From the NCBI RefSeq assembly GCF_963510575.1, contig NZ_CAUPFR010000006.1, forward strand, positions 3,119 to 27,118: a DNA stretch of 24,000 nucleotides, written 5' to 3'. This DNA comes from an uncultured Anaerococcus sp. Its GTDB lineage: Bacteria > Bacillota > Clostridia > Tissierellales > Peptoniphilaceae. This document shows, piece after piece, positions 8,598-22,728 of this stretch; positions within the stretch are counted from its first letter, which is position 1, and every line of letters begins with the position of its first letter. The notes beneath the pieces were generated by a model. That model was not told the origin of the DNA, did not search any database, and was given only the letters and a program-made list of their open reading frames with translations. Position numbers and translations under genes: made by a program.

Positions 8598-8626
8598 ATT
8601 TTAAATCTTAAATCTTTGCAAAAAAA

Positions 8627-8651
8627 AGAAATCGAATAGGTTTCTTTTTTT
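8627..8651 (+). terminator. Rho-independent terminator after maa
   Basis: AGAAATC (8627-8633) pairs with GGTTTCT (8639-8645), followed by T-run 8646-8651. Confidence 0.6.
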
Positions 8652-8727
8652 ATTTCAAAAAGTAAATCTAAACTATAAAAATATTTCAAAGCAAAGACCT
8701 TCCACAAAGCTAAGGAAAATGTTTGTG

Positions 8728-8756
8728 TGGACCTTATTTCTATTCTCTACTATAAT
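8728..8756 (+). promoter_or_regulatory. Candidate promoter of the regulator/PTS operon
   Basis: TGGACC (8728-8733), 17-nt spacer, perfect TATAAT (8751-8756). Lies 20 nt upstream of ATG 8776. Confidence 0.4.
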
Positions 8757-8775
8757 AAAGATACAAGGTGGTTAT

Positions 8776-10653
8776 ATGATTGAAACAAGATTAAAACAAA
8801 TATTTGACTACCTAACTCTTGACTACGACTACCATACGTCAAAAGAGATAGGAGAAGTAATGGAATTATCTTCTAAAACCATAAGAAAGGAGATAAACCT
8901 ACTAAATTCAGCTATAAAAGATAAGGGAGCCTTTATAGAATCCAGGCCAGGAAAGGGTTTTATTTTTATCATCAATGACAAGGACAAATTCAAACTGTTC
9001 TTGAAAAACGATTGGCACAAATATGCCTACTACCAAGAAGAAGACGGGGACAAAAACCTTAGGTATGTAAACATCCTAAAGACCTTCTTATTCTCAAACT
9101 CCTATATCAAACAATTTGAACTAGCCGAAACCTTTCACGTAAGTGAATCACAAATCAACAAAGACTTGCCCCTAATAAGGCAAATCCTAGAAACCTATAA
9201 CCTAGACCTTGTAGCAAAACCCTACTACGGCATGAAGGTAGAAGGAAGTGAGAAAAATATCAGGCTAGCAATCAAAAATGAAATAGGAGAAGATCCCCTA
9301 ATTTTTGAAGGCGACAAGGATAAGGACTTATTTGGCAAAATCCAAGAAATCATAGAAAATATTGACTTCGGCGAATCTTATTTCATGCCCTATGTGAGTT
9401 TCAAAAACCTAGTCATCCACATCTATATATCGATTTTAAGAATAAGGCAAAAAAAATATATCAGCCTGGCAAAAGATTTTGAAAAGAAAATCGAAACCTA
9501 TAAAGAATATAAGTTAGGCAAAAATATTGTAAACGAACTAGAAAAAAACCTAGACCTACAAATCCCAAAAGAAGAGCTAGTCTACATCACCATGCACCTA
9601 ATAGCCAAAAATACAATAAGGGACCAGGAAAAAATATCAACAGAAATCCTCGAACTATCACAAAGTATAATCGATGAAATCTACAAGGTCTCCAAATACG
9701 ATTTTAGGGCAAATATAGACTTCTACTTCTCCCTCGCCATCCACCTCAGCCCCTTAGCAAATAGGATAAAATACGGTTTTAACATGAAAAACCCCATCCT
9801 AGATGACATCAAAGAAAACAAAATATCCTACCTTTTGGCAACAATCGGGGCAAATGTAATAAACGAAAAATACCAAACAAAATTATCAGAAGACGAAATT
9901 GGCTACATAGCCCTCCACATAATGGCGGCTATGAATTCTAACTCAGTAAACCAAAAGAAAATCCTTATAATCTGTGGTTCAGGCAACTCCTCAGCCCAGA
10001 TAATGAAAGCCCAGCTAAACAGGCAATTTAAGGAAAAAATAGACAGCCTAGACACAACTGACCTAAGGAGCCTAAAAAACTTAGACCTAAAAAATTATGA
10101 CCTGGTCATTTCATCAATAAAACTAGACTACGACCTAGAAATCCCTGTGGTTTATGTTGATATAATATTTTCTAAAAATGACTTGGATAACTTAAAACTC
10201 GCCTTTGAAGATAAGAGACTGGCAAAAATCTACGACTTGTTCAACAATTCTATCTTCATAAAGACTAGTCAGTTTAAAAACAAGTTAGAAATCCTAAAAT
10301 ATATTTCAGAATGTATAGAAGAAAAATCTGCCATGAACAAAGACCTTGCCCTTAAACAATTGAAACAAAGGGAAGATATGGGTTATACCTTGTTTAACCA
10401 AATAGCCATCCCCCACATCCTAGACCAGGTTGATGGAGATTCCTACTCTATAATTATCGTCTTAGACAATCCTGTAAAATGGAACGAAACAAGCGCCAGA
10501 CTAGTTTATTCCCTAATCATAGGCAAGGAACTAGCTGATATGAGCCTATATTACGAAAAACTCGGCTTGTTTTTATCAAGCCACAAGTCAGTCACCAGGG
10601 CTCTTGAAGCAAATAATCAAATGGACTTTATGAACATATTCTTGAACGTTTAA
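8776..10653 (+). CDS. PRD-domain transcriptional regulator (MtlR/LicR/ManR class: HTH + 2 PRD + EIIB-like + EIIA-like)
   Basis: Start moved to ATG 8776 (MIETRLKQIF...), which follows the RBS AAGGTGG. N-terminal HTH ('TSKEIGEVMELSSKTIRKEINLL'). PRD His contexts 'LVIHIYISILR', 'ITMHLIAK', 'LAIHLSPL', 'IALHIMAA'. EIIB-like 'ILIICGSGNSSAQIM'. EIIA-like 'IAIPHI'. Confidence 0.8.
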   Translation: MIETRLKQIFDYLTLDYDYHTSKEIGEVMELSSKTIRKEINLLNSAIKDKGAFIESRPGKGFIFIINDKDKFKLFLKNDWHKYAYYQEEDGDKNLRYVNILKTFLFSNSYIKQFELAETFHVSESQINKDLPLIRQILETYNLDLVAKPYYGMKVEGSEKNIRLAIKNEIGEDPLIFEGDKDKDLFGKIQEIIENIDFGESYFMPYVSFKNLVIHIYISILRIRQKKYISLAKDFEKKIETYKEYKLGKNIVNELEKNLDLQIPKEELVYITMHLIAKNTIRDQEKISTEILELSQSIIDEIYKVSKYDFRANIDFYFSLAIHLSPLANRIKYGFNMKNPILDDIKENKISYLLATIGANVINEKYQTKLSEDEIGYIALHIMAAMNSNSVNQKKILIICGSGNSSAQIMKAQLNRQFKEKIDSLDTTDLRSLKNLDLKNYDLVISSIKLDYDLEIPVVYVDIIFSKNDLDNLKLAFEDKRLAKIYDLFNNSIFIKTSQFKNKLEILKYISECIEEKSAMNKDLALKQLKQREDMGYTLFNQIAIPHILDQVDGDSYSIIIVLDNPVKWNETSARLVYSLIIGKELADMSLYYEKLGLFLSSHKSVTRALEANNQMDFMNIFLNV

Positions 10654-10680
10654 GGTAAATATAATCTAAAAGGAGGACTT

Positions 10681-11658
10681 ATGTACGCTTTAATTGGAAC
10701 TTGGAGGATGTCCCTCGAAGGCATAGAAAAAAGCCTAAAAGATTTGGCAAATGGCAAAAGTGCAGCAGACGCCATGACCCAAACCATAAAAGAAGTCGAA
10801 AACTTTCCCTATTTTAAATCTGTAGGCTATGGTGGCCTACCAAATGAAAATATGGAAGTTGAACTAGATGCAGCCTTCATGGACGGAAGTAATTTTAACT
10901 TCGGCGCTGTTGCAGGAGTCAAAAATATTAAAAACCCAATCGCTGTCGCAAGAGACTTGTCAAAATTTGATGCCAACAACTTTTTGGTAGGACCAGGTGC
11001 AGAAAAATACGCCGACCAAAACGGTTTTGAAAGGGTAAACATGCTCACAGATAGGGCAAAAATCCATTACAAAAACCGTCTCTACCAAGAAAAAAAATTA
11101 TCCATGGAAAGAGACCTAAAACCCTATATAGGTCACGATACTGTTGGAGTTTGTGCCCTTGACAAGGATGGCAACATCGCCTGTGGCACATCTACAAGTG
11201 GACTTTTTATGAAAAAGCCAGGCAGGGTTGGCGATAGTCCTGTAATTGGATCAGGTCTTTATGCGGACAGTGAAGTTGGAGCTGCCACTGCTACAGGCCT
11301 TGGGGAAGACCTCATGAAAGGTTGTATCTCCTACGAAATCGTAAGGCTAATGAAAGAAGGATACCAGGTCCAAGACGCCTGTGATCAGGCAGTAAACAAT
11401 TTGGATAAAATCCTAAAGAAAAAAAGGGCTAAAAGTGGTGACCTATCGGTAGTAGCCATTGACAAGGACGGAAATTTTGGCGTAGCAACCAACATCGACG
11501 GCTTCTCCTTTGTTTATGGAGGCGAAAACCAACCAGCCAAGGTTTATCTCTGCTACAGGGAAAATGACAAAACCCTCTACAAAGAAGCAAGCTCCGACTG
11601 GCTTGATGACTATATGAAAACCAGAACTGCACCACTAAAATTATTAGAAGAAGAATAG
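10681..11658 (+). CDS. Ntn-hydrolase of the Asparaginase_2 family, glycosylasparaginase type (N4-(beta-N-acetylglucosaminyl)-L-asparaginase); cytoplasmic
   Basis: 'GHD|TVGVCALDKDGNIACGTSTSGLFMKKPGRVGDSPVIGSGLYADSEVGAATATGLGEDLM'. The His-Asp-Thr autoprocessing site (Thr codon 11140-11142) and 'GAATATG' resemble the human AGA and flavobacterial enzymes more than the EcAIII-type 'GTVG...VSCTGTGE'. The N-terminus 'IGTWRMS' starts directly, with no signal peptide. Confidence 0.7.
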   Translation: MYALIGTWRMSLEGIEKSLKDLANGKSAADAMTQTIKEVENFPYFKSVGYGGLPNENMEVELDAAFMDGSNFNFGAVAGVKNIKNPIAVARDLSKFDANNFLVGPGAEKYADQNGFERVNMLTDRAKIHYKNRLYQEKKLSMERDLKPYIGHDTVGVCALDKDGNIACGTSTSGLFMKKPGRVGDSPVIGSGLYADSEVGAATATGLGEDLMKGCISYEIVRLMKEGYQVQDACDQAVNNLDKILKKKRAKSGDLSVVAIDKDGNFGVATNIDGFSFVYGGENQPAKVYLCYRENDKTLYKEASSDWLDDYMKTRTAPLKLLEEE

Positions 11659-11666
11659 GAGGAAAT

Positions 11667-11987
11667 ATGGAAGATTTAGAATTGATTTGTTTTCAAATCA
11701 TCTCACACGCAGGCACAGCCAAATCAAACTATATAGAGGCTATGGCCAAGGCAAGGGAGGGTGATTTTAAAAGAGCTTCAGAACTAATTGAGGAGGGTGT
11801 AAAGTCCTACAGACTTGCCCACAAGGCCCACTCATCCCTAATTACAGAAGAAGCATCTGGCAACAAGGTAGAAGTAGGTCTTTTACTAATGCACGCCGAA
11901 GACCAACTAATAACAACGGAGGTGATAAAATTAATGGCTGAAGAAAATATTCAGCTAATAAAAGAAATTAGGAAAATAGATGAGTAA
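11667..11987 (+). CDS. PTS lactose/cellobiose-family EIIA component
   Basis: 106 aa three-helix EIIA: 'IISHAGTAKSNYIEAMAKAREGDF' and the phospho-His context 'LLMHAEDQL'. Confidence 0.85.
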   Translation: MEDLELICFQIISHAGTAKSNYIEAMAKAREGDFKRASELIEEGVKSYRLAHKAHSSLITEEASGNKVEVGLLLMHAEDQLITTEVIKLMAEENIQLIKEIRKIDE

Positions 11988-12564
11988 AAAATCTAAAATA
12001 AAAATAGAGGAAAACACAAAAACTGGATATTTTATTAAAAGAGTCTTTGCTTATATGATAGACTGGTACATCTCCTCTGTCCTTTTAAACTTAGCCATAA
12101 GGCTATGCTTGATTTTTACTGGACTTGGAGATAAGTACGGAGCCATAGTTATTAAAAGTAATAAGGCAGATGCTATAATAATTCTTATGTCACTATTAAT
12201 AGCCTTTAGCTACTATGTACTAATCCCTTATACTTCAAAAACTACTGCCACCCTAATGAATAAGGTTATGAAGCTTGAAATAGTTAATATGGACGGAAGC
12301 AAACCTAGTCTTATGACCCTAACAAAAAGGTATTTTCTAGGATGTTTCCTCCTCCAAGGTATTTTGTATTCGCCTTTTAACACTATCATCCAAACCATAT
12401 TTCAACACATAAACCCTAGTGGTGCAAAGAGCTTTGATATCATTTTAGCCTCAACCATGGCCCTTATAATAGCTTATTCATCTTTTAAAGCCCTCAAAGA
12501 TAAGAAAACTCATCAAGCACTTCAAGATGCGATTTCAAACACTTATGTAAGAAAAAGGAAGTAA
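11980..12564 (+). CDS. RDD-family integral membrane protein
   Basis: 194 aa with about 3-4 TM segments. 'KRVFAYMIDWYISSVLL' and 'LEIVNMDGSKPSLMTLTKRYFLG' fit the RDD pattern (R..A..ID ... DG..P). The ATG overlaps the EIIA stop by 8 nt. Confidence 0.6.
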   Translation: MSKKSKIKIEENTKTGYFIKRVFAYMIDWYISSVLLNLAIRLCLIFTGLGDKYGAIVIKSNKADAIIILMSLLIAFSYYVLIPYTSKTTATLMNKVMKLEIVNMDGSKPSLMTLTKRYFLGCFLLQGILYSPFNTIIQTIFQHINPSGAKSFDIILASTMALIIAYSSFKALKDKKTHQALQDAISNTYVRKRK

Positions 12565-12566
12565 TT

Positions 12567-12893
12567 ATGAAAAAATTTTATTTATTTTGCAACGCCGGTA
12601 TGTCCACAAGCCTACTAGCTAGCAAAATGCAAAAAGTAGCCAACGAACACAACTTGCCTATAGAAGTAAAGGCCTTTCCTGATTCTGAAATGGATACAAT
12701 AATAAATTCAGAAAATCCAGACGCCATCCTCTTAGGCCCACAAGTACGCCACATTTATGAAAAAACAAAAGAAAAATACGGCAATCTTGGAAAGGTTATC
12801 ATGCCAATAGATCCTGATGATTATGGCACAATGAACGGCGAAAGAGTTCTAAAAGCAGCTATCTTAGAATACAAGAAAAACGGAGGTAAATAG
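12567..12893 (+). CDS. PTS lactose/cellobiose-family EIIB component
   Basis: 108 aa. The N-terminal 'FYLFCNAGMSTSLLASKMQ' has the active-site Cys in the canonical CxAGMSTS loop. Confidence 0.85.
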   Translation: MKKFYLFCNAGMSTSLLASKMQKVANEHNLPIEVKAFPDSEMDTIINSENPDAILLGPQVRHIYEKTKEKYGNLGKVIMPIDPDDYGTMNGERVLKAAILEYKKNGGK

Positions 12894-12895
12894 AA

Positions 12896-14248
12896 ATGTT
12901 AAAAAAACTAGATTCGTTCCTATCCCCAATAGCTAACACCTTATCAAAAAACAAAATATTAAGTGCGATTAGAGATGGTTTCTTAATTACAACCCCAATT
13001 GTAATTATCGGCTCCCTATTTTTATTAATTGCCAACTTCCCAATCAACGGCTACGAAGAATTTATGGCTGGTATTTTTGGAGAAGGTTGGGATGCTTATC
13101 TTGGCAGAGTAACAGCCATAGCCTTTGACTGTATAGCCCTCCTAGCATCATTTTCTATTGGTTATTGCTATGCTCGTGAAAAAGGACTAGCTGATAAGGT
13201 ATCTGCTGCTGCAGTTGCCCTAGTATCCTTCTTGATAGTAACACCTCAAAAACACCCAGACTTTGTAAATATAGAAGATTCCGAAAAAGTATTCCGTGGA
13301 TTCTCCTTTGGAAACTTTGGTACAGCTGGTATCTTCCTATCAATGATAGTAGCAATCATATCTGTAAGCATTTTTGCTTGGGCAGTCAAAAGAAAACTTG
13401 TAATCAAACTACCTGATGGAGTTCCTCCAGCAGTAATGGATTCTTTTGCGGCCCTAATCCCTGCAGCCCTATCAATGGTATTCTTCTTTGTGATAAATAT
13501 AATTATTTCACATACATCTTATGAATACCTCCACAACCTAATTTACCAAGTTCTCCAAGCACCACTTGTTGGTCTAGGAAGATTTGCCCTATTTGAAGTT
13601 ATATACCAATTCTTATCAACCCTCTTCTGGTTCTTTGGTATAAACGGCCCTGCTGTTACAAATACAGTATTCTCACCAATCCACAAGGCTCTTACACTTG
13701 AAAACTACGAAGCAGCTCAAGCTGGTCTAAAGATGACAAACATCTTCACAGCTGGATTCTCAGATTTCTTCTGCAACTTCGGTGGTGGTGGATCAACACT
13801 AGGTCTTGTAATAATGATGTCATTCCTAGCCAAATCTGAAAGAATGAAAGTTTTAGGTAGATTATCTCTTCCTGCAGGCATCTTTGGAATTAACGAACCA
13901 ATCATCTTTGGTCTACCAATAGTATTAAACCCAATCATGATTATTCCATTTATCCTATCACCTATTGCAAATACAGTTATAGCTTACCTTGCAACTATCA
14001 CAGGCTTTATCCCTGTTACATCTGGTATCCAACTACCATGGACAACCCCAATAGGATTCTCAGGCTACCTCATCACAGGTACCTTCTCTGCAGTAATCTT
14101 ACAGCTAGGCCTACTTGCCCTAAACATGGCAATCTACTACCCATTCATGAAATTACTAGATAAGCAATACCTAGAAGAAGAAAAGAATAAGGTAGAAGAA
14201 GTTGACGAAATAGACTCCCTATCATTTGACGATTTAAGCCTAGATTAA
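12896..14248 (+). CDS. PTS lactose/cellobiose-family EIIC permease
   Basis: 450 aa polytopic protein. 'AIRDGFLITTPIVIIGSLFLLIANFP', 'GINGPAVTN', 'GGGGSTLGL' and 'INEPIIFGLPIVLNP' are typical of Lac/Chb-family EIIC. Confidence 0.85.
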   Translation: MLKKLDSFLSPIANTLSKNKILSAIRDGFLITTPIVIIGSLFLLIANFPINGYEEFMAGIFGEGWDAYLGRVTAIAFDCIALLASFSIGYCYAREKGLADKVSAAAVALVSFLIVTPQKHPDFVNIEDSEKVFRGFSFGNFGTAGIFLSMIVAIISVSIFAWAVKRKLVIKLPDGVPPAVMDSFAALIPAALSMVFFFVINIIISHTSYEYLHNLIYQVLQAPLVGLGRFALFEVIYQFLSTLFWFFGINGPAVTNTVFSPIHKALTLENYEAAQAGLKMTNIFTAGFSDFFCNFGGGGSTLGLVIMMSFLAKSERMKVLGRLSLPAGIFGINEPIIFGLPIVLNPIMIIPFILSPIANTVIAYLATITGFIPVTSGIQLPWTTPIGFSGYLITGTFSAVILQLGLLALNMAIYYPFMKLLDKQYLEEEKNKVEEVDEIDSLSFDDLSLD

Positions 14249-14268
14249 TTTTTAGAAAGAAGTGACAA

Positions 14269-14781
14269 ATGAAAGTATTAATGATCTTTGATCAGGGTTT
14301 GGCTGGTGCTGGCGGAAAATCAAATCCCAACCAAGAACTAGCTATAGCAAAGGGCGGAATTGGTTCTGCCCTTATGCTAAAACCCCATTTTGATAAAATT
14401 TCCGCAAGCATTGTAGCCACCTTATATTGTGGCAACGAATATTTTCTAAACCACCAAAAAGAAGTAGTAATAAAAATGACCAAGATGGCAGAAAAGATAA
14501 AACCAGACCTAGTTGTCTGTGGGCCATGTTTTAACTTTGAAGACTACGCCCTAATGTCTGCTGAAATTGCCCTAAGTATAAAAGAATACACCGATATCCC
14601 TGTACTAGCCATGATGTCCAAAGAAAACGAAGCTACTATCTCTAACTTTAAGGACAAGATAGACATCCTAAAGATGCCAAAAAAAGGTGGCACAGGGCTT
14701 AGCGAAAGTTTTGACAACCTAGCTAACTATATAGATAGGAAGGTCAATGGTGGAGAAATAAATAAGGACCACTTATATTAA
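14269..14781 (+). CDS. Stand-alone protein resembling the N-terminal domain of the glycine/sarcosine/betaine reductase component B (GrdB) family; function unknown
   Basis: 170 aa. 'KVLMIFDQGLAGAGGKSNP', 'VATLYCGNEYF', 'KPDLVVCGPCFNFEDYALMSAEIA' and 'IPVLAMM' line up, from memory, with GrdB 'VVHYxNQFFAGIGGEEKA...VICGDxYF...PDLFIAGPAFNAGRYGxACG...IPVxTGM'. It lacks the C-terminal Sec-containing region. Confidence 0.4.
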   Translation: MKVLMIFDQGLAGAGGKSNPNQELAIAKGGIGSALMLKPHFDKISASIVATLYCGNEYFLNHQKEVVIKMTKMAEKIKPDLVVCGPCFNFEDYALMSAEIALSIKEYTDIPVLAMMSKENEATISNFKDKIDILKMPKKGGTGLSESFDNLANYIDRKVNGGEINKDHLY

Positions 14782-14786
14782 AAATT

Positions 14787-15785
14787 ATGACAAAAAATAA
14801 AATCAAAGAAATCTACGATATTTATTCCGTATCCAGTTTTGAAAGACAAATCAGCGACTATCTCGAAAAAGCCTACCAAGCCTATGACTATAAAATAGTA
14901 AAAGATAAGCTAAACTCAGTTTTTTTCAACAAGGCAAATCCCGGTCGTAAAAAAGTAATGATAGCCTTTCCCCTAGATGAATACGGATTAATGGTTAGAG
15001 AAATAGAAGATAATGGAAAAATAAGGTTCATCCTCCTAGAAGATATTTCTCCATTATCTTTTTTAAATCAAAGAGTAAATATAATCACAAGAAACAAAAA
15101 AAATATAAAAGGTATCGTAAAGGCAGATGTAAAATTTGCTGAAGATTCTAAGACAAATATTGGCGAAGATGATCTTTATATAGAAGTCTTAGCTCCTAAG
15201 GATAAGCTAAAAGAAAGTGTAAAAATAGGCGACCTTGTAAGTTTAGATTCGCCCTTTTATGAAGATGAAAACTTTATAATGGCAAGGTCTCTTAGCCAAA
15301 AAATCTACCAGTATCTTTCCATAAGCCTAGCCGAAAAAATCAAGGATAAGACCTATCCTTTTGATTTGTATGTTGGGGGTATATCCCAATCAACCATCGG
15401 TTTTAGGGGGACAAAAACTGCTACCTACGTAATAAAGCCAGACCTCGCCCTAGCACTCACAAGTTTTGAAACTAACGCCTCAAGCCCAAAAATTTCCCTA
15501 GGCGATGGCCTAATAGTCGGCAAATATGACAAGCAAATGCTACCCGATAGGAAACTTTTATCCTTTGTAGAAGACAGGTTTGAAGCTAAGGCCTACCTTG
15601 GTCTTAGGGGCAATGACGGATCTTTTATCCACAAAACTATTTCTGGAACCCCTTGCCTATCCCTAGGTCTTGCCACAGCAAATATCTCAACAGCCAATGA
15701 AATAATTTCTAAAACCGACATAGAAAAGCTAGAAAATTTCTTGATTGATTTCCTAGATCAAGTTGGCGAATTTTTAGGGGAATGA
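14787..15785 (+). CDS. M42-peptidase-fold paralog with all metal-ligand positions substituted (predicted pseudo-peptidase)
   Basis: Colinear with the next gene and with M42/TET peptidases. However 'AFPLDEYG' replaces 'AHxDEIG', 'MARSLSQKI' replaces 'xxDDR/DNRxx', 'ISQSTIGFRGT' replaces 'VQEEVGLRGA', 'ALALTSF' replaces 'AIDVT', and there is no 'RYxHS/T' His. Confidence 0.6.
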   Translation: MTKNKIKEIYDIYSVSSFERQISDYLEKAYQAYDYKIVKDKLNSVFFNKANPGRKKVMIAFPLDEYGLMVREIEDNGKIRFILLEDISPLSFLNQRVNIITRNKKNIKGIVKADVKFAEDSKTNIGEDDLYIEVLAPKDKLKESVKIGDLVSLDSPFYEDENFIMARSLSQKIYQYLSISLAEKIKDKTYPFDLYVGGISQSTIGFRGTKTATYVIKPDLALALTSFETNASSPKISLGDGLIVGKYDKQMLPDRKLLSFVEDRFEAKAYLGLRGNDGSFIHKTISGTPCLSLGLATANISTANEIISKTDIEKLENFLIDFLDQVGEFLGE

Positions 15786-15786
15786 T

Positions 15787-16848
15787 ATGGATGTAGGAAA
15801 ATTCAAAGACCTTGCAAGCCTTCCCGGCCTAAGCTCTTTTGAAGACAGGGTCGTAAATCATTTAGAAAAAAACCTAGATGCTAAGGACCTAGAAATTCAA
15901 AAAGACGGGATAGGTAGCCTAATTGTAAGAAAAAAACCTAGCCAAAGCCAAAATCCTCTAAAACTCATGTTTGCAACCCACATAGATGAAATTGGGTTTT
16001 TGGTAGAAGATTTTAGGGGCAATTTTTTGAAACTAAGGCCTGTTGGTTCTACCTGGACCCACTTAGTTGTTGGACAAATTTACCAATTGATCAATAAGGA
16101 TGGCAAGAGATATTTTGGAGTCATATCCTCTCCTGCAACCCACGGCAGGAGTGCGGAAGAAAAATCCAAAACCCTAAGCCAGGATGAACTCTACCTGGAT
16201 TTGGCTTTGGAAGATGGGGATTTTGAGAAATTGAATATAGGAATTGGCGATGAGGTAGTTCCCTATGCACCAGACCTTGACCTTGCTAATGATAAATTTT
16301 TCCTAGCCAAGGCCATAGACAACAGGATTTCTGCCTACCTTGGCGAAGAGATTTTAGCTGAGAAGCTTGCCAACAAAACCGACCTCTACTGGGCCTTTAC
16401 CGTCCAAGAAGAACCAGGTCTTAGGGGTGCTCGCACGGTTACAGATATAGTTAGACCAGACCTGGCCTTTGCCATTGACACCACCCTCGCAGGTGATACC
16501 GTCTTTGACAAAAACTCAGTCAAACTCGGTGGTGGCCTTGTCCTTTCCTTTATAGATTCAAACTCCATAGCCCACAGGGGACTCATGCGTTGGGTCGAAA
16601 ATTTGTGCGAAGCTAACAAAATAAAATACCAGTACGCAGTCTTTAACAAGGGTGGAACTGATTCTGGCAATATCCACAAATCCCTAGATGGAATCATAAA
16701 TATGACCCTATCCATCCCAGTAAGGTATATGCACACCAACCACACCCTAGCCAATACAGACGATGTAGACAATTGCCTAAGGCTGGTAAAAACAATTATC
16801 CAAAGCCTAGATGAAAAAGAATTTGAAAAAATTAAGGATTTGCAATGA
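15787..16848 (+). CDS. M42 family metallopeptidase (TET/glutamyl-aminopeptidase/FrvX-like)
   Basis: 'ATHIDEIGFLV', 'KAIDNRIS', 'FTVQEEPGLRGA', 'AFAIDTTLAGD' and 'VRYMHTNHT' retain all five canonical M42 metal-binding positions. Confidence 0.8.
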   Translation: MDVGKFKDLASLPGLSSFEDRVVNHLEKNLDAKDLEIQKDGIGSLIVRKKPSQSQNPLKLMFATHIDEIGFLVEDFRGNFLKLRPVGSTWTHLVVGQIYQLINKDGKRYFGVISSPATHGRSAEEKSKTLSQDELYLDLALEDGDFEKLNIGIGDEVVPYAPDLDLANDKFFLAKAIDNRISAYLGEEILAEKLANKTDLYWAFTVQEEPGLRGARTVTDIVRPDLAFAIDTTLAGDTVFDKNSVKLGGGLVLSFIDSNSIAHRGLMRWVENLCEANKIKYQYAVFNKGGTDSGNIHKSLDGIINMTLSIPVRYMHTNHTLANTDDVDNCLRLVKTIIQSLDEKEFEKIKDLQ

Positions 16849-17951
16849 AAGAAAAGATTGACCAAATGGTCGACTCCCTAAGAGACGACCTAATTTCGGA
16901 CCTAAGAGAAGTAATAAAAATCCCTAGCAAAAAAGGGGAAGCCACAGCTGATGCTCCCTATGGCCTAGCCTGCAAAAGGGTTTTAGAAAAAATAATCGAA
17001 ATCACTGGCAAAAAGGGTTTTGCCACAAAAAACGTAGACAACCACATGGCTTATTGTTCAATCGGCGAAGGTACTGACTATGTTTGCGCCATGGGCCACC
17101 TAGATGTGGTCGATGAAATGCCGGGTTGGAAATACCCTCCCTTTGCCGGAGAAATCCACGAAAACAGGATGTATTCTAGGGGGGCACTTGACAACAAGGG
17201 CCCAATCATGGCAGCATTTTACGGTCTATATGCCCTAAAGAAATTAGGTGTAAATTTCAACAAGGAATTTAGGATTGTCTTTGGCTCTGATGAAGAAAGT
17301 GGCATGGCAGACCTCAGCTATTATCTAACTAAGGAAAAACCACCTATCATGGGCTTTTCCCCAGACAATAAATTCCCAGCCATCTACGGAGAAAGGGCCA
17401 GAGCTAAGGTCGCCTTAAAAGGAGATTTTGAATGTTTTGAAAATTTCCTAAATAAAAAAATCTTTGCCGGCGACCCAATCAAAAATCTGGCTATAGACAT
17501 CAGTGACCAAGACTTCGGTAGGATGATTTTGAGGGGCAAGAAAATTTTTAGGGATAAAGATGAATATGGTATAGAATTTAGCCTATCCATGCCTATTTGT
17601 GATAAGGATTATGTCCTAAAACAAATCGAGGAAAACGCCCTCGGCCTCAAAGTAAGGCTAATATCCTACGAAGAAGCCTTCCTAGCAGATAAAAATTCTG
17701 CCCTAGTGGAGATTTTAAATGACGCCTACAATGATTATCTAGGGGCAAATGAAAAACCAACCACAACCACAGGCATGACCTACGCCCATTTTTGCCCAAA
17801 TATAATCCCCTTTGGTCCATCATTCCCAGGACAAAACGGGATTGCCCACCTCCCAAACGAATGGATGGACATAGACGATTTGATAAAATGCACAAAAATC
17901 TACGCCTACGCCTTTTATAAAATCAACGAAAATTTCAATAAAGGAGAATAA
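16845..17951 (+). CDS. M20 family metallopeptidase (PepV/Sapep-like dipeptidase, short form)
   Basis: 'GHLDVVDEMPGWKYPPF', 'SRGALDNKGP' and 'FGSDEESG' are M20 metal-ligand motifs. The start overlaps the M42 stop (ATGA). Confidence 0.75.
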   Translation: MKEKIDQMVDSLRDDLISDLREVIKIPSKKGEATADAPYGLACKRVLEKIIEITGKKGFATKNVDNHMAYCSIGEGTDYVCAMGHLDVVDEMPGWKYPPFAGEIHENRMYSRGALDNKGPIMAAFYGLYALKKLGVNFNKEFRIVFGSDEESGMADLSYYLTKEKPPIMGFSPDNKFPAIYGERARAKVALKGDFECFENFLNKKIFAGDPIKNLAIDISDQDFGRMILRGKKIFRDKDEYGIEFSLSMPICDKDYVLKQIEENALGLKVRLISYEEAFLADKNSALVEILNDAYNDYLGANEKPTTTTGMTYAHFCPNIIPFGPSFPGQNGIAHLPNEWMDIDDLIKCTKIYAYAFYKINENFNKGE

Positions 17952-17952
17952 A

Positions 17953-18846
17953 ATGAAAAGATTAATAAGTTCTAATGCCTCAGACCTCTGTGCCTATTCT
18001 GCAAAAGAACTCAAACAAAGTATCAAGGCAAGCGAAGGCAGGACAGTCTGCGCAGAAAATGTTGCCGTCAGAGAAGCCTTCATAGGAGATATAACCGGAG
18101 CAGAAATCGCAAGAGCCTTTGGCGCTGACCTCATCCTCCTAAACGCAGTTGATGTCCTAGAACCAAAGCTTGCCGGCATCGAAAACCAAGCCGATTTTGT
18201 AAATGAACTAAAAAAACTTGTCGGTAGACCAATCGGAGTTAACCTCGAACCTGTAGACCCAAATGCCAAAATGATGGAAAACACCCTAGCTATTTCTAGG
18301 GGCAGGACAGTCAATGAAGACAGTTTGGCTGCCCTAGATAAGCTTGGCATGGACTTCTTGTGCCTAACAGGCAATCCTGGCACAGGAGTTACCAACAAAA
18401 CCATAGCCGAATCCATAAAACTAGCCAAGGAAAATTTCTCAGGCCTCATCATAGCAGGCAAGATGCACTCATCAGGTGTAGACGAACCTGTAACCAGCAA
18501 GGAAACCATAGAGACCTTCATCAAGGCAGGCGCAGATATAATCCTAGTCCCAGCAGTGGGTACAGTTCCAGGCTTTGACAGCGATGATCTCAAAGAAGCT
18601 GTAAAAGTTGCCCACGCCAATGACGCCCTAGTCATGACAGCCATCGGCACCAGCCAAGAAGGATCTAGCAAGGAAACCATCAGACAAATCGCCATAGCCA
18701 ACAAAATCTGTGGCGTAGATATCCAACACATAGGAGATGCCGGCTACGGAGGCCTCGCACCAGTAGAAAACATCTTCGAACTAAGCCTAGCTATCAGAGG
18801 CATCAGACATACTGTTTCTATGGTTGCTAGGTCCGTTAATAGGTGA
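17953..18846 (+). CDS. Uncharacterised protein, predicted (beta/alpha)8 TIM-barrel-like enzyme
   Basis: 297 aa with a regular series of short hydrophobic strand motifs: 'ADLILLNA', 'IGVNLEP', 'DFLCLTGNPGTG', 'LIIAGKMH', 'ADIILVPAVGTVPG', 'LVMTAIGTS', 'VDIQHIGDAG'. Last gene before the terminator. The long antisense ORF 17994-18731 is judged a shadow ORF. Confidence 0.35.
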   Translation: MKRLISSNASDLCAYSAKELKQSIKASEGRTVCAENVAVREAFIGDITGAEIARAFGADLILLNAVDVLEPKLAGIENQADFVNELKKLVGRPIGVNLEPVDPNAKMMENTLAISRGRTVNEDSLAALDKLGMDFLCLTGNPGTGVTNKTIAESIKLAKENFSGLIIAGKMHSSGVDEPVTSKETIETFIKAGADIILVPAVGTVPGFDSDDLKEAVKVAHANDALVMTAIGTSQEGSSKETIRQIAIANKICGVDIQHIGDAGYGGLAPVENIFELSLAIRGIRHTVSMVARSVNR

Positions 18847-18853
18847 GATTTTT

Positions 18854-18893
18854 CCCTAGGTCAATTTTTGATTTAGGGATTTTTTCTTTTTTT
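18854..18893 (+). terminator. Rho-independent terminator ending the PTS operon
   Basis: CCCTAGGTC (18854-18862) pairs with GATTTAGGG (18870-18878), two G-U pairs, then a T-rich run 18880-18893. Confidence 0.65.
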
Positions 18894-18925: not shown

Positions 18926-19825
18926 ATGGGTGATTTTGAAAAGGACCTTTACCCTGATTTGGGGCTTGGGGATATTATTGAGATTTTGAGCAAGAAGGAT
19001 GAGGGGCGTTTGGCTTTGGAGGATTATTCTGGATTCGAGGGGGAAGTCTGGTCTGATTTGTCCTATAAAAATGACGGGGATTTTTACCATAATTTTGATA
19101 TTTATTATGGGAAATCTTTTGGAAATCTCCTCCCTACTGTGATTTATGTCCACGGTGGTGGCCTGGTTTATGGGACTAAGGAAGTTTGCAAAGCCGCCTG
19201 CCTAAGGCTGGCTAGTTTGGGTTTTAATGTAGCAAATATCAATTACAGACTCCTTCCTCATGTGACCCTGAGGGACCAAATCAAGGACGTCCTCGACGGT
19301 CTTACCTATATTTACGAAAATGCTCGCAGGTTTAATCTTGATCCCGACAAGATTTTTCTGACTTCCGATTCGGCTGGTTCTTTTCTAAGCCTTGCGGCTT
19401 TTGCCCTTATGAATGATGTAAATTTCGGGGAAATTTTTGGCATCCCTGCCAAAGACATTGATATCTCAGGTATGGCTTTGATTTCACCTATGACTGGCCT
19501 TTTAAAATCCGGTTCTCTTTCCCTCATAAATGAGCCTGCAAGATGTGGCCTTAGCAAGGACCAAGTCCCCTTTACAGATAATATCCTAAAGGCTCTTGCC
19601 ATTTTGCCTCCAACTTTGATTACCACTAGCGAGGAAGATTTTATCAGAGACCAGGCTCTCGATTTAAAAAAATTCCTAGCCGTAAAAGACCTGCCCCATC
19701 TTATATTAGATTTCAAAAAAACTCCTACACACCATCTAGGCCACAGCTTTGCCATCTCCCACCCAGACCTTGGCGAAAGTGGGCAAGTTTTTGTGGAAAT
19801 TAGGGATTTTTTCAAGAAATACTAA
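18926..19825 (+). CDS. Alpha/beta hydrolase, hormone-sensitive-lipase-like (family IV) esterase
   Basis: Oxyanion motif 'VIYVHGGGLVYG' (HGGG) and nucleophile elbow 'LTSDSAGS' (GDSAG-like). RBS GAGG 6 nt upstream. Confidence 0.75.
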   Translation: MGDFEKDLYPDLGLGDIIEILSKKDEGRLALEDYSGFEGEVWSDLSYKNDGDFYHNFDIYYGKSFGNLLPTVIYVHGGGLVYGTKEVCKAACLRLASLGFNVANINYRLLPHVTLRDQIKDVLDGLTYIYENARRFNLDPDKIFLTSDSAGSFLSLAAFALMNDVNFGEIFGIPAKDIDISGMALISPMTGLLKSGSLSLINEPARCGLSKDQVPFTDNILKALAILPPTLITTSEEDFIRDQALDLKKFLAVKDLPHLILDFKKTPTHHLGHSFAISHPDLGESGQVFVEIRDFFKKY

Positions 19826-19898
19826 GAAAATCATAAGGAAAAAATTCGTCATTCCAACAGACCGTCCGGAGAATGGGACGGGAAACCAATCGGATGTG

Positions 19899-19926
19899 GA
19901 CCCTGCACATGAGGGTCTCTTTTTTT
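19899..19926 (+). terminator. Rho-independent terminator after the esterase gene
   Basis: GACCCT (19899-19904) pairs with AGGGTC (19912-19917), then TC + T6. Preceded by a second hairpin, CCGTCC/GGACGG (19862-19881). Confidence 0.6.
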
Positions 19927-19982
19927 GTGGAGAAAAATTTTTTTGGGTAAAAATACTATATAAAATGCAAAGGAAGGCTCAT

Positions 19983-21461
19983 ATGACAAATACAATTTCT
20001 ACTGGCAAAAAATTTCAATTTCAAGACTTCAAGAGGGCAGACCTTGCCAACAAGCTTGGCAGGATGGCGAGGATTTGCTCTGATCTTAATATTCCAATTT
20101 TAATCATAGTTGACGGTTGGGAATCATCCGGCAGGGGCTTTGTCATCAAGGACCTGACCCGAGACTTCGCAGCCAAGGACTTTGACGTAGCTGTACCCGA
20201 CAAGGACGATAGTTGGGACAAATCCTACCCCTTTATCAGGAAATTTTGGGTAAATATCCCCAAAAAAGGCAAGGTCAAACTCTTTGACAGATCTTTTTAC
20301 TACAAGCTTTTTGAAAACCTAACCCTATCCGAAAAGGAAATAGCAACAAAAATCGCCTCCATCAAAAATACGGAAAAGGCCCTTTTTGACGACCAAACCA
20401 TCATCATAAAATTTTTCCTCAATATAGACAAGGACGTGCAAAAGGAGAGGATAAAAGAACTCAGAAACTCCATCAAGAAAAATTTCTATATAGACGGGAT
20501 GGACGATGCCCAACAGACCTCCTACCCAGCCTACGAAACCCACTTCAAAAAACTCCTAAAAGCCACCGACTTCCCCTACGCCCCATGGGACATAATCGAC
20601 TCCAACGATAGGAAAGCCGCCTCCAAAGAAGCCCTGGGCATAGCCATAGACAGGCTCAGCCAAGGCATAGAAAGAGTCATCAGACAAAGAAAGGAAAATG
20701 AAAACACCCAGAGATCCTACAAAAAAACCAAATCAATCCTCAAAAAACTCGACCTAAACAAAACCATAGACGAAGAAACCTACCAAGCAAAAAAGAAAAA
20801 ACTCCAAAAACAAGTCGCAGACCTCATGTACCAATACTACGAAAAAGGCATCAGCCAAGTCCTAGTCTTTGAAGGAGTAGACGCAGCCGGCAAAGACGGT
20901 GCCATAGAAAGACTCATCAAAGAAGTCGACCCTAGACTTTACACAGTCTACGGAATCTCCGCCCCATCAAAAGAAGAACTAGACCGCAACTATCTATGGA
21001 GATTTTATAGCAAACTCCCAAAAGACGGCTACGTCTCAATCTTCTCCCGCTCTTGGTATGGCAGGGTCATGGTCGAAAGAGTCGAAGGCTACGCCAAAGT
21101 CAATGAATGGGACAGGGCCTACGGAGAAATCACCAACATGGAAAAGGAAATCACCGACCACGGCAGTCTAGTCATCAAATTTTTCCTCACCATAGACAAG
21201 GACGAACAGCTAAAACGCTTTGAAGACAGGGAGAGAAATCCAGATAAGCAATACAAAATCACCGACGAAGACTGGCGCAACAGGCAAAAATGGGACGCCT
21301 ACCAGGAAGCCATGGACGAAATGCTAATAAGGACCAATTACAATCCCTGGGTCATAGTCGCCACCAACCAAAAAAAATATGCCAGAATCAAAGTCATGGA
21401 AGAATATATAAGACTAGCCAAAGACCATCTGGAAAAAATCCACCAAAAAACTCGAGCCTAA
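19983..21461 (+). CDS. ppk2: Two-domain polyphosphate kinase 2 family protein (polyphosphate:AMP/NMP phosphotransferase-like)
   Basis: Start set at ATG 19983 (MTNTIST...), which follows the RBS AAGGAAGG. The C-terminal domain is canonical ('VFEGVDAAGKDGAI', 'FSRSWYGRV'). The N-terminal domain is PPK2-like with a variant P-loop ('VDGWESSGRGFVI', 'FDRSFYYKL'). The upstream 78 codons of the track ORF overlap the esterase gene and terminator. Confidence 0.8.
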   Translation: MTNTISTGKKFQFQDFKRADLANKLGRMARICSDLNIPILIIVDGWESSGRGFVIKDLTRDFAAKDFDVAVPDKDDSWDKSYPFIRKFWVNIPKKGKVKLFDRSFYYKLFENLTLSEKEIATKIASIKNTEKALFDDQTIIIKFFLNIDKDVQKERIKELRNSIKKNFYIDGMDDAQQTSYPAYETHFKKLLKATDFPYAPWDIIDSNDRKAASKEALGIAIDRLSQGIERVIRQRKENENTQRSYKKTKSILKKLDLNKTIDEETYQAKKKKLQKQVADLMYQYYEKGISQVLVFEGVDAAGKDGAIERLIKEVDPRLYTVYGISAPSKEELDRNYLWRFYSKLPKDGYVSIFSRSWYGRVMVERVEGYAKVNEWDRAYGEITNMEKEITDHGSLVIKFFLTIDKDEQLKRFEDRERNPDKQYKITDEDWRNRQKWDAYQEAMDEMLIRTNYNPWVIVATNQKKYARIKVMEEYIRLAKDHLEKIHQKTRA

Positions 21462-21540: not shown

Positions 21541-22728
21541 CTAGTTGTTTTTCTTTCTGGTTGCAACAATGCCAGCCATTGAGATAGCAAGTGTTGAAAG
21601 AACTGGAGCTACGCTTTCAAGACCAGTCTTTGGATTCTTGCGACCAGCTTGACGAGCAGGAGCTTGTTTCTTGTTTTCTGCTTCTACTACTTTTTTCTTG
21701 TTTTCTTTAGCTTTAGATTTTTCTTTAACTTCTGTAGTTTCTTTTTCTTTAGCTTCTTTTTCAGTTTCTACTTCTTTGCTTTCTTCTAGTTTAGGAAGAG
21801 TAACTTCTTCGTCAACCTTACCAGGTTTGATTAATGGGTATTCATAATCATAAGATGGAACTGGTTTAACATCTGGTTTAACATCTGGTTTAACATCTGG
21901 TTTCTTTTCTTCTTTTTCATTTATTTCTGGAACAAAGTAGTAATTATTATTTAAACCCTTCATAATTCTGAAAGAATTGAATTCAGGGTGTTTTTTAAGA
22001 TATGCTTTAGCTGCAATTTCAGCTTGTTCTCTACTGATGTATCCATCTTCAGAGTTTTTCTTGATTAGATAATCATCTATTGTAGTAGTTTTTTTATCTT
22101 TTTTTTCTACCTTCTTATCATCTTTTTGATTTTCAAGCCATTCATCAATTGTGACAAGTTTGTTCTTTTTGTTATATTCATCAATAGTCATTGAATTAGA
22201 CTTAAATTGATTTAGAAGCTTTTCTTTCATTTGATCTACATCATAAACAGAATCTAAGCCTTCAAGTCTTTTTAATACTTTTTCATTTTTAAGACCAGCT
22301 TTTCTCAATTCTTCTTTAGCTTTTTTAACTTCTGCTTCTATTAATGGAGCAACTCTTTCTTTTTCTTCTTTAGCTTTTCTAGCATCATCTTTTTCTTTAA
22401 ATGCTTTTTCTGCTTCTTTTACAGCTTTATCAGCATTAGTAACTTTAGTTTGTGCATTAGTTACAGCTTGTTTTGCTTGTTCTATAGCCGCATCATTATT
22501 TTCTTTTTTTTCTTCTTCAGCTTGTTTTGCTTTTGCATCAGCTAAATCTTTATTAGCTTTTTCCAAATCTTTTTTAGCTGCTTGAACATCTTGATCAAGA
22601 TCATAAAGTGTCTTTTCTGCTGGTGCTGGAGCAGCTGGTTGATTTCCTGCATCTTGAGCATGGGCAACACCACCTGAAAGGATAAGACCTGCAGATAAGG
22701 CAACTGCTAGTATTCTATTTGTTTTCAT
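21541..22728 (-). CDS. Cell-wall-anchored surface protein: signal peptide, Ala/Lys/Glu-rich coiled coil, GA-module-like segment, KPDV repeats, NPKTG sorting signal
   Basis: Signal peptide 'MKTNRILAVALSAGLILSGGVAHA'. The C-terminus 'NPKTG-LESVAPVLSTLAISMAGIVA-TRKKNN' gives a sortase motif, a hydrophobic span and a basic tail. RBS GGAGAT. Confidence 0.8.
   Translation of the reverse strand: MKTNRILAVALSAGLILSGGVAHAQDAGNQPAAPAPAEKTLYDLDQDVQAAKKDLEKANKDLADAKAKQAEEEKKENNDAAIEQAKQAVTNAQTKVTNADKAVKEAEKAFKEKDDARKAKEEKERVAPLIEAEVKKAKEELRKAGLKNEKVLKRLEGLDSVYDVDQMKEKLLNQFKSNSMTIDEYNKKNKLVTIDEWLENQKDDKKVEKKDKKTTTIDDYLIKKNSEDGYISREQAEIAAKAYLKKHPEFNSFRIMKGLNNNYYFVPEINEKEEKKPDVKPDVKPDVKPVPSYDYEYPLIKPGKVDEEVTLPKLEESKEVETEKEAKEKETTEVKEKSKAKENKKKVVEAENKKQAPARQAGRKNPKTGLESVAPVLSTLAISMAGIVATRKKNN
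21861..21903 (-). repeat. 12-bp tandem repeat (3.6 copies) encoding (KPDV)n inside the surface protein gene
   Basis: CTGGTTTAACAT occurs three times, plus a partial copy CTGGTTT. All copies are identical. Confidence 0.9.

Follow-up and report, generated by a model that had tools for sequence, protein, structure and literature searches.

A probable ega-type operon for N-acetylglucosaminyl-asparagine uptake and cleavage in Anaerococcus

The window analysed here is a stretch of 24,000 nucleotides from an uncultured Anaerococcus sp. (assembly GCF_963510575.1, contig NZ_CAUPFR010000006.1, positions 3,119 to 27,118 of the forward strand). Its + strand carries an operon of 11 genes in the same direction, at 8776-18846, in which a phosphotransferase system (PTS) of the lactose/cellobiose (lac/cel) family is combined with an N-terminal nucleophile (Ntn) hydrolase of the asparaginase family, three peptidase-fold proteins, a GrdB-like protein, an RDD-family membrane protein and a TIM-barrel protein of family DUF7916 (Table 1). 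The gene content, the conservation of active sites, homology to loci like the enterococcal glycosylasparaginase (ega) locus and wide synteny, all obtained in the present comparison, suggest that the operon serves to import and split N-acetylglucosamine (GlcNAc) linked to asparagine (GlcNAc-Asn); this substrate is taken from the literature on the homologous PTS and asparaginase of Enterococcus faecalis.

The extent of the operon was taken from the listing of open reading frames (ORFs), and domains were assigned by Pfam and NCBIfam searches of the ORFs. The gene junctions, in 5′ to 3′ order, measure +27, +8, −8, +2, +2, +20, +5, +1, −4 and +1 nt. A first-pass annotation had described eleven co-directional genes with junctions of −8 to +27 nt; this layout was reproduced from the ORF coordinates, and every gene family named there was recovered by profile searches. 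The same annotation placed a terminator at each end of the operon. The downstream terminator was found by a consensus terminator scan and stands. The upstream hairpin, which went unflagged because the scan requires three G-C pairs, is weaker than the downstream one, and it is plausible that it would isolate the operon. The regulator most likely starts at ATG 8776 and not at 8719, because a GGTGG ribosome-binding site precedes 8776. No regulatory RNA was found in an Rfam scan of the window, and its base composition gives no sign of a foreign island. Pfam and NCBIfam searches detected no glycoside hydrolase (GH) domain in the 11 operon genes or in the rest of the window.

Table 1. Features of the operon and its boundaries (window coordinates)
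Feature	Position	Strand	Basis
A/U-rich hairpin, probable (bidirectional-looking) terminator	8621-8651	+	3′ of upstream acetyltransferase gene; −11.7 kcal/mol, z −3.1
Sigma-70-like promoter, TGGACC-17-TATAAT	8728-8756	+	10/12 matches; 20 nt 5′ of ATG 8776
PRD transcriptional activator, LicR/MtlR type	8776-10653	+	HTH_11-Mga-PRD-PRD-EIIB-like-EIIA_2 (Pfam)
Predicted cytoplasmic glycosylasparaginase (Ntn hydrolase), EgaG/AsnA2-like	10681-11658	+	Asparaginase_2 5e-71; self-cleavage predicted at HD/T154
PTS EIIA, lactose/cellobiose family	11667-11987	+	PF02255 4e-31
RDD-family membrane protein, conserved accessory	11980-12564	+	PF06271 3e-12
PTS EIIB, lactose/cellobiose family	12567-12893	+	PF02302 3e-15
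PTS EIIC, ega-type subgroup of lac/cel family, predicted GlcNAc-Asn permease	12896-14248	+	TIGR00410 402 bits
GrdB-N-terminal-like protein without selenocysteine, EgaD-like	14269-14781	+	NF041545 GrdB_like_no_Se, 231 bits, cutoff 175
Pseudo-M42, all metal ligands and catalytic Glu replaced	14787-15785	+	P,S,S,T,-,S at H,D,E,E,D,H positions; fold only
Active-type M42 (TET-like) aminopeptidase	15787-16848	+	PF05343 6e-71; H65, D178, E208, E209, D231, H316 all kept
Short-lid Sapep/PepV-type M20 dipeptidase, EgaP/PepV-like	16845-17951	+	TIGR01887 293 bits
DUF7916 TIM-barrel protein, probable sugar-phosphate enzyme	17953-18846	+	PF25509 436 bits
Intrinsic terminator, 12-bp stem and T-run	18853-18893 (hairpin 18853-18879)	+	Consensus scan; −17 kcal/mol, z −4.6

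The Ntn protein was compared with enzymes of known structure. Its best matches in the PDB are the Elizabethkingia glycosylasparaginase precursors 1p4k and 9gaa (194 bits, E 4e-56), followed at a distance by EcAIII (2zak, 147 bits) and human ASRGL1 (about 123 bits). With the NCBIfam beta-aspartyl-peptidase model the protein reaches 154 bits, well short of the cutoff, 567. Aligned with Firmicute homologues and the Elizabethkingia enzyme, the protein keeps H152-D153-T154, the predicted autoprocessing site with its Thr nucleophile, as well as T172, R182, D185, T205-G206 and the sugar-stacking W8. All catalytic and Asp-binding residues are thereby retained, and the active-site residues together with W8 are invariant in 19 homologues. 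The Elizabethkingia counterparts are T170, R180, D183, T203 and G204, with Trp11 as the sugar platform. By its structure-match scores and active-site residues the enzyme is thus predicted to be of the glycosylasparaginase type rather than the isoaspartyl-peptidase type, as originally proposed, and homologues of 60-70% identity carry the NCBI name N(4)-(beta-N-acetylglucosaminyl)-L-asparaginase. The alignment also confirmed that a signal peptide is lacking; the enzyme is probably cytoplasmic, because its sequence begins directly at the mature alpha-chain. The PTS-linked Firmicute enzymes have features of their own. Residues 7-10 read T-W-R-M throughout this clade, as against T-W-N-F in the periplasmic Elizabethkingia enzyme, so that Asn12 and Phe13 of the latter are replaced by an invariant Arg9 and Met10. 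The clade also has in common a conserved extension at the C-terminus, about 45 aa long (residues ~280-325). The invariant Arg adjoining the sugar-binding Trp could be a contact for a 6-phosphate.

The permease subunit can be placed among the lac/cel family by its neighbours. The EIIC of the window shares 42-57% identity with EIICs encoded next to GrdB-like genes outside Anaerococcus, as against 30-39% with other lac-family EIICs of the same loci, and by these identities it groups with the GrdB-adjacent EIICs. The N-terminus of EIIB contains the sequence LFCNAGMSTS, whose Cys is presumably the phosphoryl acceptor, as in ChbB-type EIIB proteins. In related clusters the RDD gene usually lies directly 3′ of the regulator gene, and among the loci compared GntR regulators occur only in those of Lactobacillales (E. 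raffinosus and L. curvatus).

Full GrdB, the selenoprotein B of glycine, sarcosine or betaine reductase, is a protein of about 430 aa whose C-terminal half contains the selenocysteine. The window protein, of 170 aa, covers only positions 3-164 of the 347 in the Pfam GRDB profile and does not qualify as a full-length selenocysteine GrdB. A PDB sequence search gave no match to it. A single-sequence AlphaFold2 model (predicted local distance difference test, pLDDT, 73) has a flavodoxin/CheY-like fold by Foldseek comparison, an assignment that is uninformative on function and speaks neither for nor against the label 'oxidoreductase'.

Three genes encode peptidase folds. The two M42 proteins had been described as one dead and one live copy, and this is borne out by their metal and catalytic positions. 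Adjacent M42 pairs at ten other loci show the same polarity: across these and the window the downstream copy always keeps HDEEDH, and the upstream copies have degenerated lineage by lineage, to PSST-S, SNSV-G, NNKEDN, HNHEDQ and HEEEGY. Because the upstream copy is degenerate and the downstream copy intact in every pair, the comparison suggests a conserved heteromeric complex of pseudo and active TET-like M42 subunits. Pairs located between the GrdB-like and M20 genes are also present in Allobaculum, Holdemanella, C. cadaveris, Tissierellaceae and others. The third protein, of family M20, keeps the metal-ligand motifs of PepV/Sapep, namely GHLDVV, RGALDNKG, GSDEESG, SPDNKFP and GIAHLPNE, in an alignment with Sapep read by eye, the assignment of ligands being our own reading. 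Its lid is shorter by a 65-aa gap relative to the 433-aa E. raffinosus enzyme and by about 100 aa relative to Sapep, and it also matches the NCBIfam ArgE/DapE models. A literature search on M42 peptidases in PTS operons returned nothing relevant.

To see how the gene set is distributed, a species-level genome set was scanned with the Ntn alignment, yielding 587 relatives, and the best 80 of the 587 loci were analysed. Their ORFs were searched with the window proteins and with MupG, CutC, NagB and ROK probes, and genes were counted within the unbroken cluster that surrounds the Ntn gene; the counts are lower bounds, because many contigs are incomplete. M20 was found in 65 clusters, CutC in 57, EIIA in 54, EIIC in 52, EIIB in 50, the GrdB-like protein in 47, RDD in 34, the PRD regulator in 33, MupG in 17 and DUF7916 in two. 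The M20 gene adjoins the Ntn gene, on either side, in all 65, and this linkage extends to Lactobacillales; the GrdB-like gene stands 3′ of EIIC in all 47. M42 pairs are optional, with four contiguous clusters containing one and about 12 loci having a pair within 10 kb. The dominant arrangement is PRD regulator-RDD-EIIA-EIIB-EIIC-GrdB-like-Ntn-M20-CutC, to which a GH170 MupG gene may be added; its carriers belong to Clostridium, Lachnospiraceae, Erysipelotrichaceae, Peptostreptococcaceae and Tissierellia. In Allobaculum the gene for the glucosamine-6-P deaminase NagB adjoins the cluster. Conservation of the neighbourhood across Firmicutes, which had been put forward as a check on the first proposal, was therefore observed. 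The accompanying claim that no glycosidase is present holds for the operon itself; the 17 clusters with MupG, however, encode a phospho-glycosidase of the MupG/ChbE type. An additional protein of about 289 aa with YitT_membrane and DUF2179 domains is often encoded 3′ of CutC (L061:12851-13720, L084:12804-13664, L071:12811-13686) and is absent from the window.

The closest genomic match is Anaerococcus degeneri DSM 29674, whose Ntn protein is 97% identical to that of the window. The same gene order is found in three metagenomic or metagenome-assembled genome (MAG) relatives (Ntn 85%), and an Anaerococcus MAG (Ntn 70%) differs only in the inversion of the regulator gene. The arrangement is therefore not due to chance, since the same 10-11 genes recur in order at these three levels of divergence. 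Compared with the consensus cluster of Clostridia and Erysipelotrichia, the window operon has the same regulator type, RDD protein, three PTS components, GrdB-like protein, Ntn enzyme and short (about 370 aa) M20; it differs in that the Ntn gene comes first, CutC and YitT are missing and DUF7916 stands at the 3′ end. The M42 pair also goes beyond the consensus, and is shared with Allobaculum, Holdemanella, C. cadaveris and some Tissierellia. What is particular to Anaerococcus and a few other lineages is the pseudo/active M42 pair, the short-lid M20 and the presence of DUF7916 in the slot of CutC. In A. degeneri a second PRD regulator, EIIA and EIIB follow directly after DUF7916 (L010:18413-20975), where the window has esterase and PPK2 genes (18926-21461); the window must therefore stem from another strain or species than DSM 29674, in spite of the 97% identity of the Ntn proteins.

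DUF7916 occupies at the 3′ end of the Anaerococcus operon the position that CutC has in most other lineages. The family comprises 565 representatives at E ≤ 0.001 (50% clustering), and its Anaerococcus and Clostridium members are 69-71% identical. The AlphaFold2 model is an eight-stranded TIM barrel (pLDDT 88, predicted template modelling score 0.90), for which Foldseek against the PDB retrieved only phosphate-binding barrels, at template modelling scores of about 0.5 (IMPDH, IGPS, PrpB, class I aldolases and OMPDC). A deep profile built from 52 diverse members shows weak likeness to DHDPS, the ManNAc-6-P 2-epimerase NanE, type I dehydroquinase and DERA. Four of the 52 match Pfam NanE (best E 4.7e-6), and the conserved Lys170 of DUF7916, in an A-G-K-M-H motif, falls in the alignment on Lys66, the catalytic residue of C. 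perfringens NanE. Compared with CutC by hhalign, the deep profile gave a probability of 85% (E 5.8e-6, 144 columns) and a shallow profile 8%, with no match to Pfam CutC (PF03932); at that 85% probability DUF7916 would be a remote homologue of CutC. The family also occurs away from asparaginase genes. C. algidicarnis, C. tertium and another Clostridium have, next to a divergent ROK gene, a compact cassette of the order EIIC-DUF7916-EIIB-EIIA, in which DUF7916 is the sole enzyme (L092:6659-9706, L093:6638-9694, L094:6625-9698; also L008:6928-10900) and the EIIC is 40% identical to that of the window. C. neonatale has DUF7916 in addition to a full CutC cluster. From these weak likenesses and locations we tentatively propose that DUF7916 is most likely a sugar-phosphate enzyme, probably for an N-acetylhexosamine-phosphate, acting directly downstream of such PTSs.

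In Firmicutes no gene was seen beside that of the glycosylasparaginase more often than the one for CutC, which carries the annotation 'copper homeostasis protein' (for example L071:12074-12814 and L061:12120-12851). It adjoins a glycosylasparaginase gene also on the Hymenobacter volaticus plasmid NZ_CP095062.1 (251211-252194), and cutC has been reported within the Xanthomonas nix N-glycan cluster (PMC6718126). Because of these three associations CutC looks like an enzyme of N-glycan-core catabolism.

Taken together, we consider it probable, at roughly 0.7, that this is an Anaerococcus glycoamino-acid PTS operon of the ega type, which imports and splits GlcNAc-Asn with the help of peptidase trimming and DUF7916 processing. 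The substrate GlcNAc-beta-Asn would be the remnant left on host or dietary glycoproteins after the action of endo-beta-N-acetylglucosaminidase and proteases. The lac/cel EIIC would import it, and possibly also very short peptides that carry it, and EIIA and EIIB would phosphorylate the conjugate, presumably, from PTS chemistry, at O-6 of GlcNAc. The inactive/active M42 complex and the short-lid M20 may then strip flanking residues, leaving Asn with free alpha-amino and alpha-carboxyl groups. The self-processing Ntn enzyme would cleave the beta-aspartyl-glucosylamine bond to give L-aspartate and 1-amino-GlcNAc(-6-P), which would decay or be converted to GlcNAc(-6-P) and ammonia. DUF7916 would most likely process the N-acetylhexosamine-phosphate product, the most tentative of these steps. 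The PRD activator would couple expression to the phosphorylation state of the PTS, with the GrdB-like and RDD proteins as conserved accessories. Uptake of GlcNAc-Asn by an asparaginase-linked lac/cel-type PTS had been suggested by the first-pass annotation, and finds backing in the E. faecalis literature and in the wide Ntn-PTS-M20 linkage.

Several points weigh against this reading. Our account of ega rests on papers that cite the original study, and orthology to EgaG and EgaC was seen only via the E. raffinosus and L. curvatus loci and the published ega gene content. The regulator is of the PRD/Mga type and not a GntR repressor like EgaR, and family searches found no NagA, NagB or kinase gene in the window. 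An L. casei pepV mutant has no phenotype on 6′FN-Asn (PMC6960285), which leaves the role of the peptidase in the pathway putative. Finally, the substrate of DUF7916 need not be the asparaginase product, because the protein is found without asparaginase in the Clostridium PTS cassettes.

Those cassettes raise a different explanation, in which the imported compound is a larger glycan-Asn (such as chitobiosyl-Asn or another sugar-beta-GlcNAc-Asn) and a cryptic ability to cleave phospho-glycosides puts DUF7916 in the role of MupG or ChbE, releasing a sugar-6-phosphate and GlcNAc-Asn. In the cassettes DUF7916 fills the slot usually held by a phospho-glycosidase, and the C. tertium example is flanked by a 1631-aa secreted GH20 protein and an LPXTG GH16 protein; MupG/GH170 is present in related clusters, and the L. 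paracasei MupG homologue ChbE is needed for PTS-dependent use of diacetylchitobiose. The barrel itself speaks otherwise. DUF7916 and MupG/GH170 reach only 1-7% by hhalign, and the Foldseek list contains no glycosidase. The hints of GH3 are noise (5bza E 0.022, Pfam GH3 E 0.011), and a hidden glycosidase was rejected on grounds of homology and retained solely as an alternative that rests on gene context. The affinities that exist, weak as they are, lead to NanE, DHDPS, DERA and CutC, which are sugar-phosphate barrels with lysine chemistry and not GH barrels, and in C. neonatale DUF7916 stands beside a complete CutC cluster. We regard cleavage of a larger glycan-Asn by DUF7916 as distinctly unlikely. 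A plain cellobiose or chitobiose PTS was also considered, and was excluded by the conserved linkage to the asparaginase.

The peptidases could be read in two other ways. Only free GlcNAc-Asn might be imported, as in ega, with the M42 pair and M20 doing some other job, for example general peptide turnover in a peptide fermenter or sugar deacylation. The normal growth of the pepV mutant would fit, as would the optional nature of the M42 pairs, the M42 genes without explained role in unrelated Escherichia coli PTS operons, and the deacylases that the M20 family contains besides dipeptidases, to which the ArgE/DapE matches point. The M20-Ntn linkage is, however, very tight and reaches Lactobacillales, the M42 pairs insert specifically between the GrdB-like and M20 genes, and the peptidases have an obvious role because glycosylasparaginases require free alpha-amino and alpha-carboxyl groups on Asn (PMC6960285); the chance of this reading is slim. 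In the other reading the operon serves in the salvage of beta-aspartyl (isoaspartyl) peptides or of fragments of peptidoglycan, with the Ntn enzyme acting as an isoaspartyl peptidase and the PTS importing an N-acetylmuramic acid/GlcNAc-peptide or an unrelated beta-glucoside. The Asparaginase_2 family does include isoaspartyl peptidases, enzymes of the MupG family first became known from MurNAc-GlcNAc recycling, the operon has three peptidase-fold genes and there is a match to the NCBIfam beta-aspartyl-peptidase model. That match is far under the cutoff, however, and the best structural relatives are glycosylasparaginases with an invariant sugar-stacking Trp; the Firmicute relatives AsnA2 and EgaG are reported to be active on GlcNAc-Asn, and no MurQ etherase is present. 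This salvage reading appears highly improbable.

A bolder proposal extends the preferred GlcNAc-Asn reading. DUF7916 and CutC may be remote homologues and together make up a class of TIM-barrel enzymes, so far overlooked, whose substrate is the N-acetylhexosamine(-6-phosphate) product of glycoamino-acid catabolism, for instance by converting or deaminating 1-amino-GlcNAc-6-P or by a NanE-like proton transfer at C2, and the M42 pair and short-lid M20 may trim phosphorylated glycopeptides imported by the PTS. As a whole this is unlikely. If true, it would give a first metabolic function to the CutC family, human CUTC included, and would explain the M42 genes in PTS operons.

GlcNAc-Asn is the universal stub of deglycosylated and digested N-glycoproteins, and, as judged from the 587 relatives, Firmicutes of gut and wounds very commonly possess the core of the system. 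The conserved gene set is richer than the enterococcal locus that has been studied, with RDD, an intact GrdB-like gene, CutC or DUF7916, YitT and optionally GH170 or M42, and Anaerococcus, a peptide-fermenting anaerobe of wounds and skin, has a peptidase-rich version. These clusters provide testable candidates for several orphan questions, namely the roles of GrdB-like proteins and of CutC/DUF7916, the presence of M42 in PTS operons and the carriage of glycopeptides by a PTS. The remaining value of the locus lies in its unexplained conserved accessories (GrdB-like, RDD, DUF7916/CutC and the M42 pair) and in the link of CutC/DUF7916 to glycoamino-acid catabolism.

The genes flanking the operon (MATE, maltose acetyltransferase-like, LarA-like, esterase and PPK2) are unrelated to glycans. 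The PPK2 ORF (19749-21461), with TTG as start codon, overlaps the esterase gene at that gene's 3′ end, and a hairpin resembling a terminator lies within it at 19898-19918. The true start of the ORF is probably near 19965-19983, because the family match begins at residue 92; the protein has two domains and is of the polyphosphate:AMP phosphotransferase type. Two further ORFs, 2425-3267 (+, 280 aa) and 21541-22728 (−, 395 aa), match no Pfam family significantly; for the second, a sub-threshold match to DUF5633 was the only one.

The closest characterised relative is the E. faecalis ega locus, egaR-egaP / egaG-egaB-egaC-egaD (Combret et al. 2023/2024, Res Microbiol 175:104169). As described in papers that cite the original study, a GntR regulator and a dipeptidase share one promoter, and a second promoter drives EgaG, a lac/cel EIIB, an EIIC and a GrdB-type gene; this last, a 'putative oxidoreductase', is a pseudogene in strain OG1RF. 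Such papers also state that E. faecalis imports GlcNAc-L-Asn by a cellobiose-type PTS, with CelA1 as the EIIA of 'the GlcNAc-L-Asn PTS'. Similar loci were found by tblastn of annotated plasmids and megaplasmids; no Enterococcus appeared among the best 120 homologues of an Atopostipes enzyme used as query. The E. raffinosus locus reads GntR (LSA1692 subfamily)-Sapep dipeptidase-glycosylasparaginase-EIIB-EIIC-EIIA, and that of L. curvatus glycosylasparaginase-GntR-GrdB family protein-EIIC-Sapep dipeptidase. The window Ntn protein is 51-54% identical to the enzymes of these two loci (51% to that of E. raffinosus), EIIC is 47% identical over its full length to that of E. raffinosus, the GrdB-like protein 38% to that of L. 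curvatus, and M20 30% to that of E. raffinosus with the 65-aa lid gap. Judging by the title of the original study, the ega system reportedly contributes to infection by E. faecalis. The window operon clusters the same core: lac/cel EIIB and EIIC together with a cytoplasmic glycosylasparaginase, an M20 dipeptidase of the Sapep type and a protein related to GrdB. It differs in having a PRD activator instead of the GntR repressor EgaR, its own EIIA where E. faecalis borrows CelA1, an intact GrdB-like gene and an M20 that lacks about 65 aa of the lid, and it adds RDD, the pseudo/active M42 pair and DUF7916.

A second relative is the alf-2 operon of L. casei/paracasei (Becerra et al. 2020, PMC6960285), in which the gene for the cytoplasmic glycosylasparaginase AsnA2 is conserved beside the M20 gene pepV. 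In the model proposed for it, imported N-glycopeptides are trimmed by PepV to GlcNAc-Asn, which AsnA2 then splits (PMC6960285). The pairing of a cytoplasmic glycosylasparaginase with an M20 peptidase is common to both systems. The alf-2 system, in contrast, relies on the major facilitator superfamily permease AlfH and not on a PTS, and it depends on the alpha-1,6-fucosidase AlfC. An Asp decarboxylase, AsdA, and a kinase, SugK, also belong to it, and GlcNAc-Asn itself is not used. The genes for AlfH, AlfC, AsdA and SugK are all absent from the window operon. A PTS for a sugar-amino-acid conjugate together with a cytoplasmic glycosylasparaginase, an M20 and a GrdB-like protein is therefore a kind of system already characterised. 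The initial statement that no characterised system has such a composition does not hold, and the core of the first idea, though largely right, is not new, because ega and alf-2 between them already cover it.

The diacetylchitobiose PTS operons (E. coli chb; L. paracasei chbRCDE/chbBA) employ the same PTS family for 'disaccharide-sized' beta-linked GlcNAc substrates from N-glycan cores or chitin, and the GH170 enzyme ChbE is required for this in L. paracasei (PMC12791066). They encode a GH4 or GH170 phospho-glycosidase, whereas the window operon has none and an amidase, the Ntn hydrolase, would break the bond. GH170 is the family of ChbE, and chitobiosyl-Asn may be a further substrate of those related clusters that contain it. 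In E. coli the frv, sgc and ypd PTS operons carry the M42 homologues FrvX, SgcX and YpdE, and sgc also the TIM-barrel gene sgcQ. They share with the window operon an M42 aminopeptidase homologue encoded within a PTS operon; their PTSs are of other families, however, neither an asparaginase nor a pseudo-M42 partner is encoded in them and no substrate is known for them, so that the resemblance is one of analogy only.

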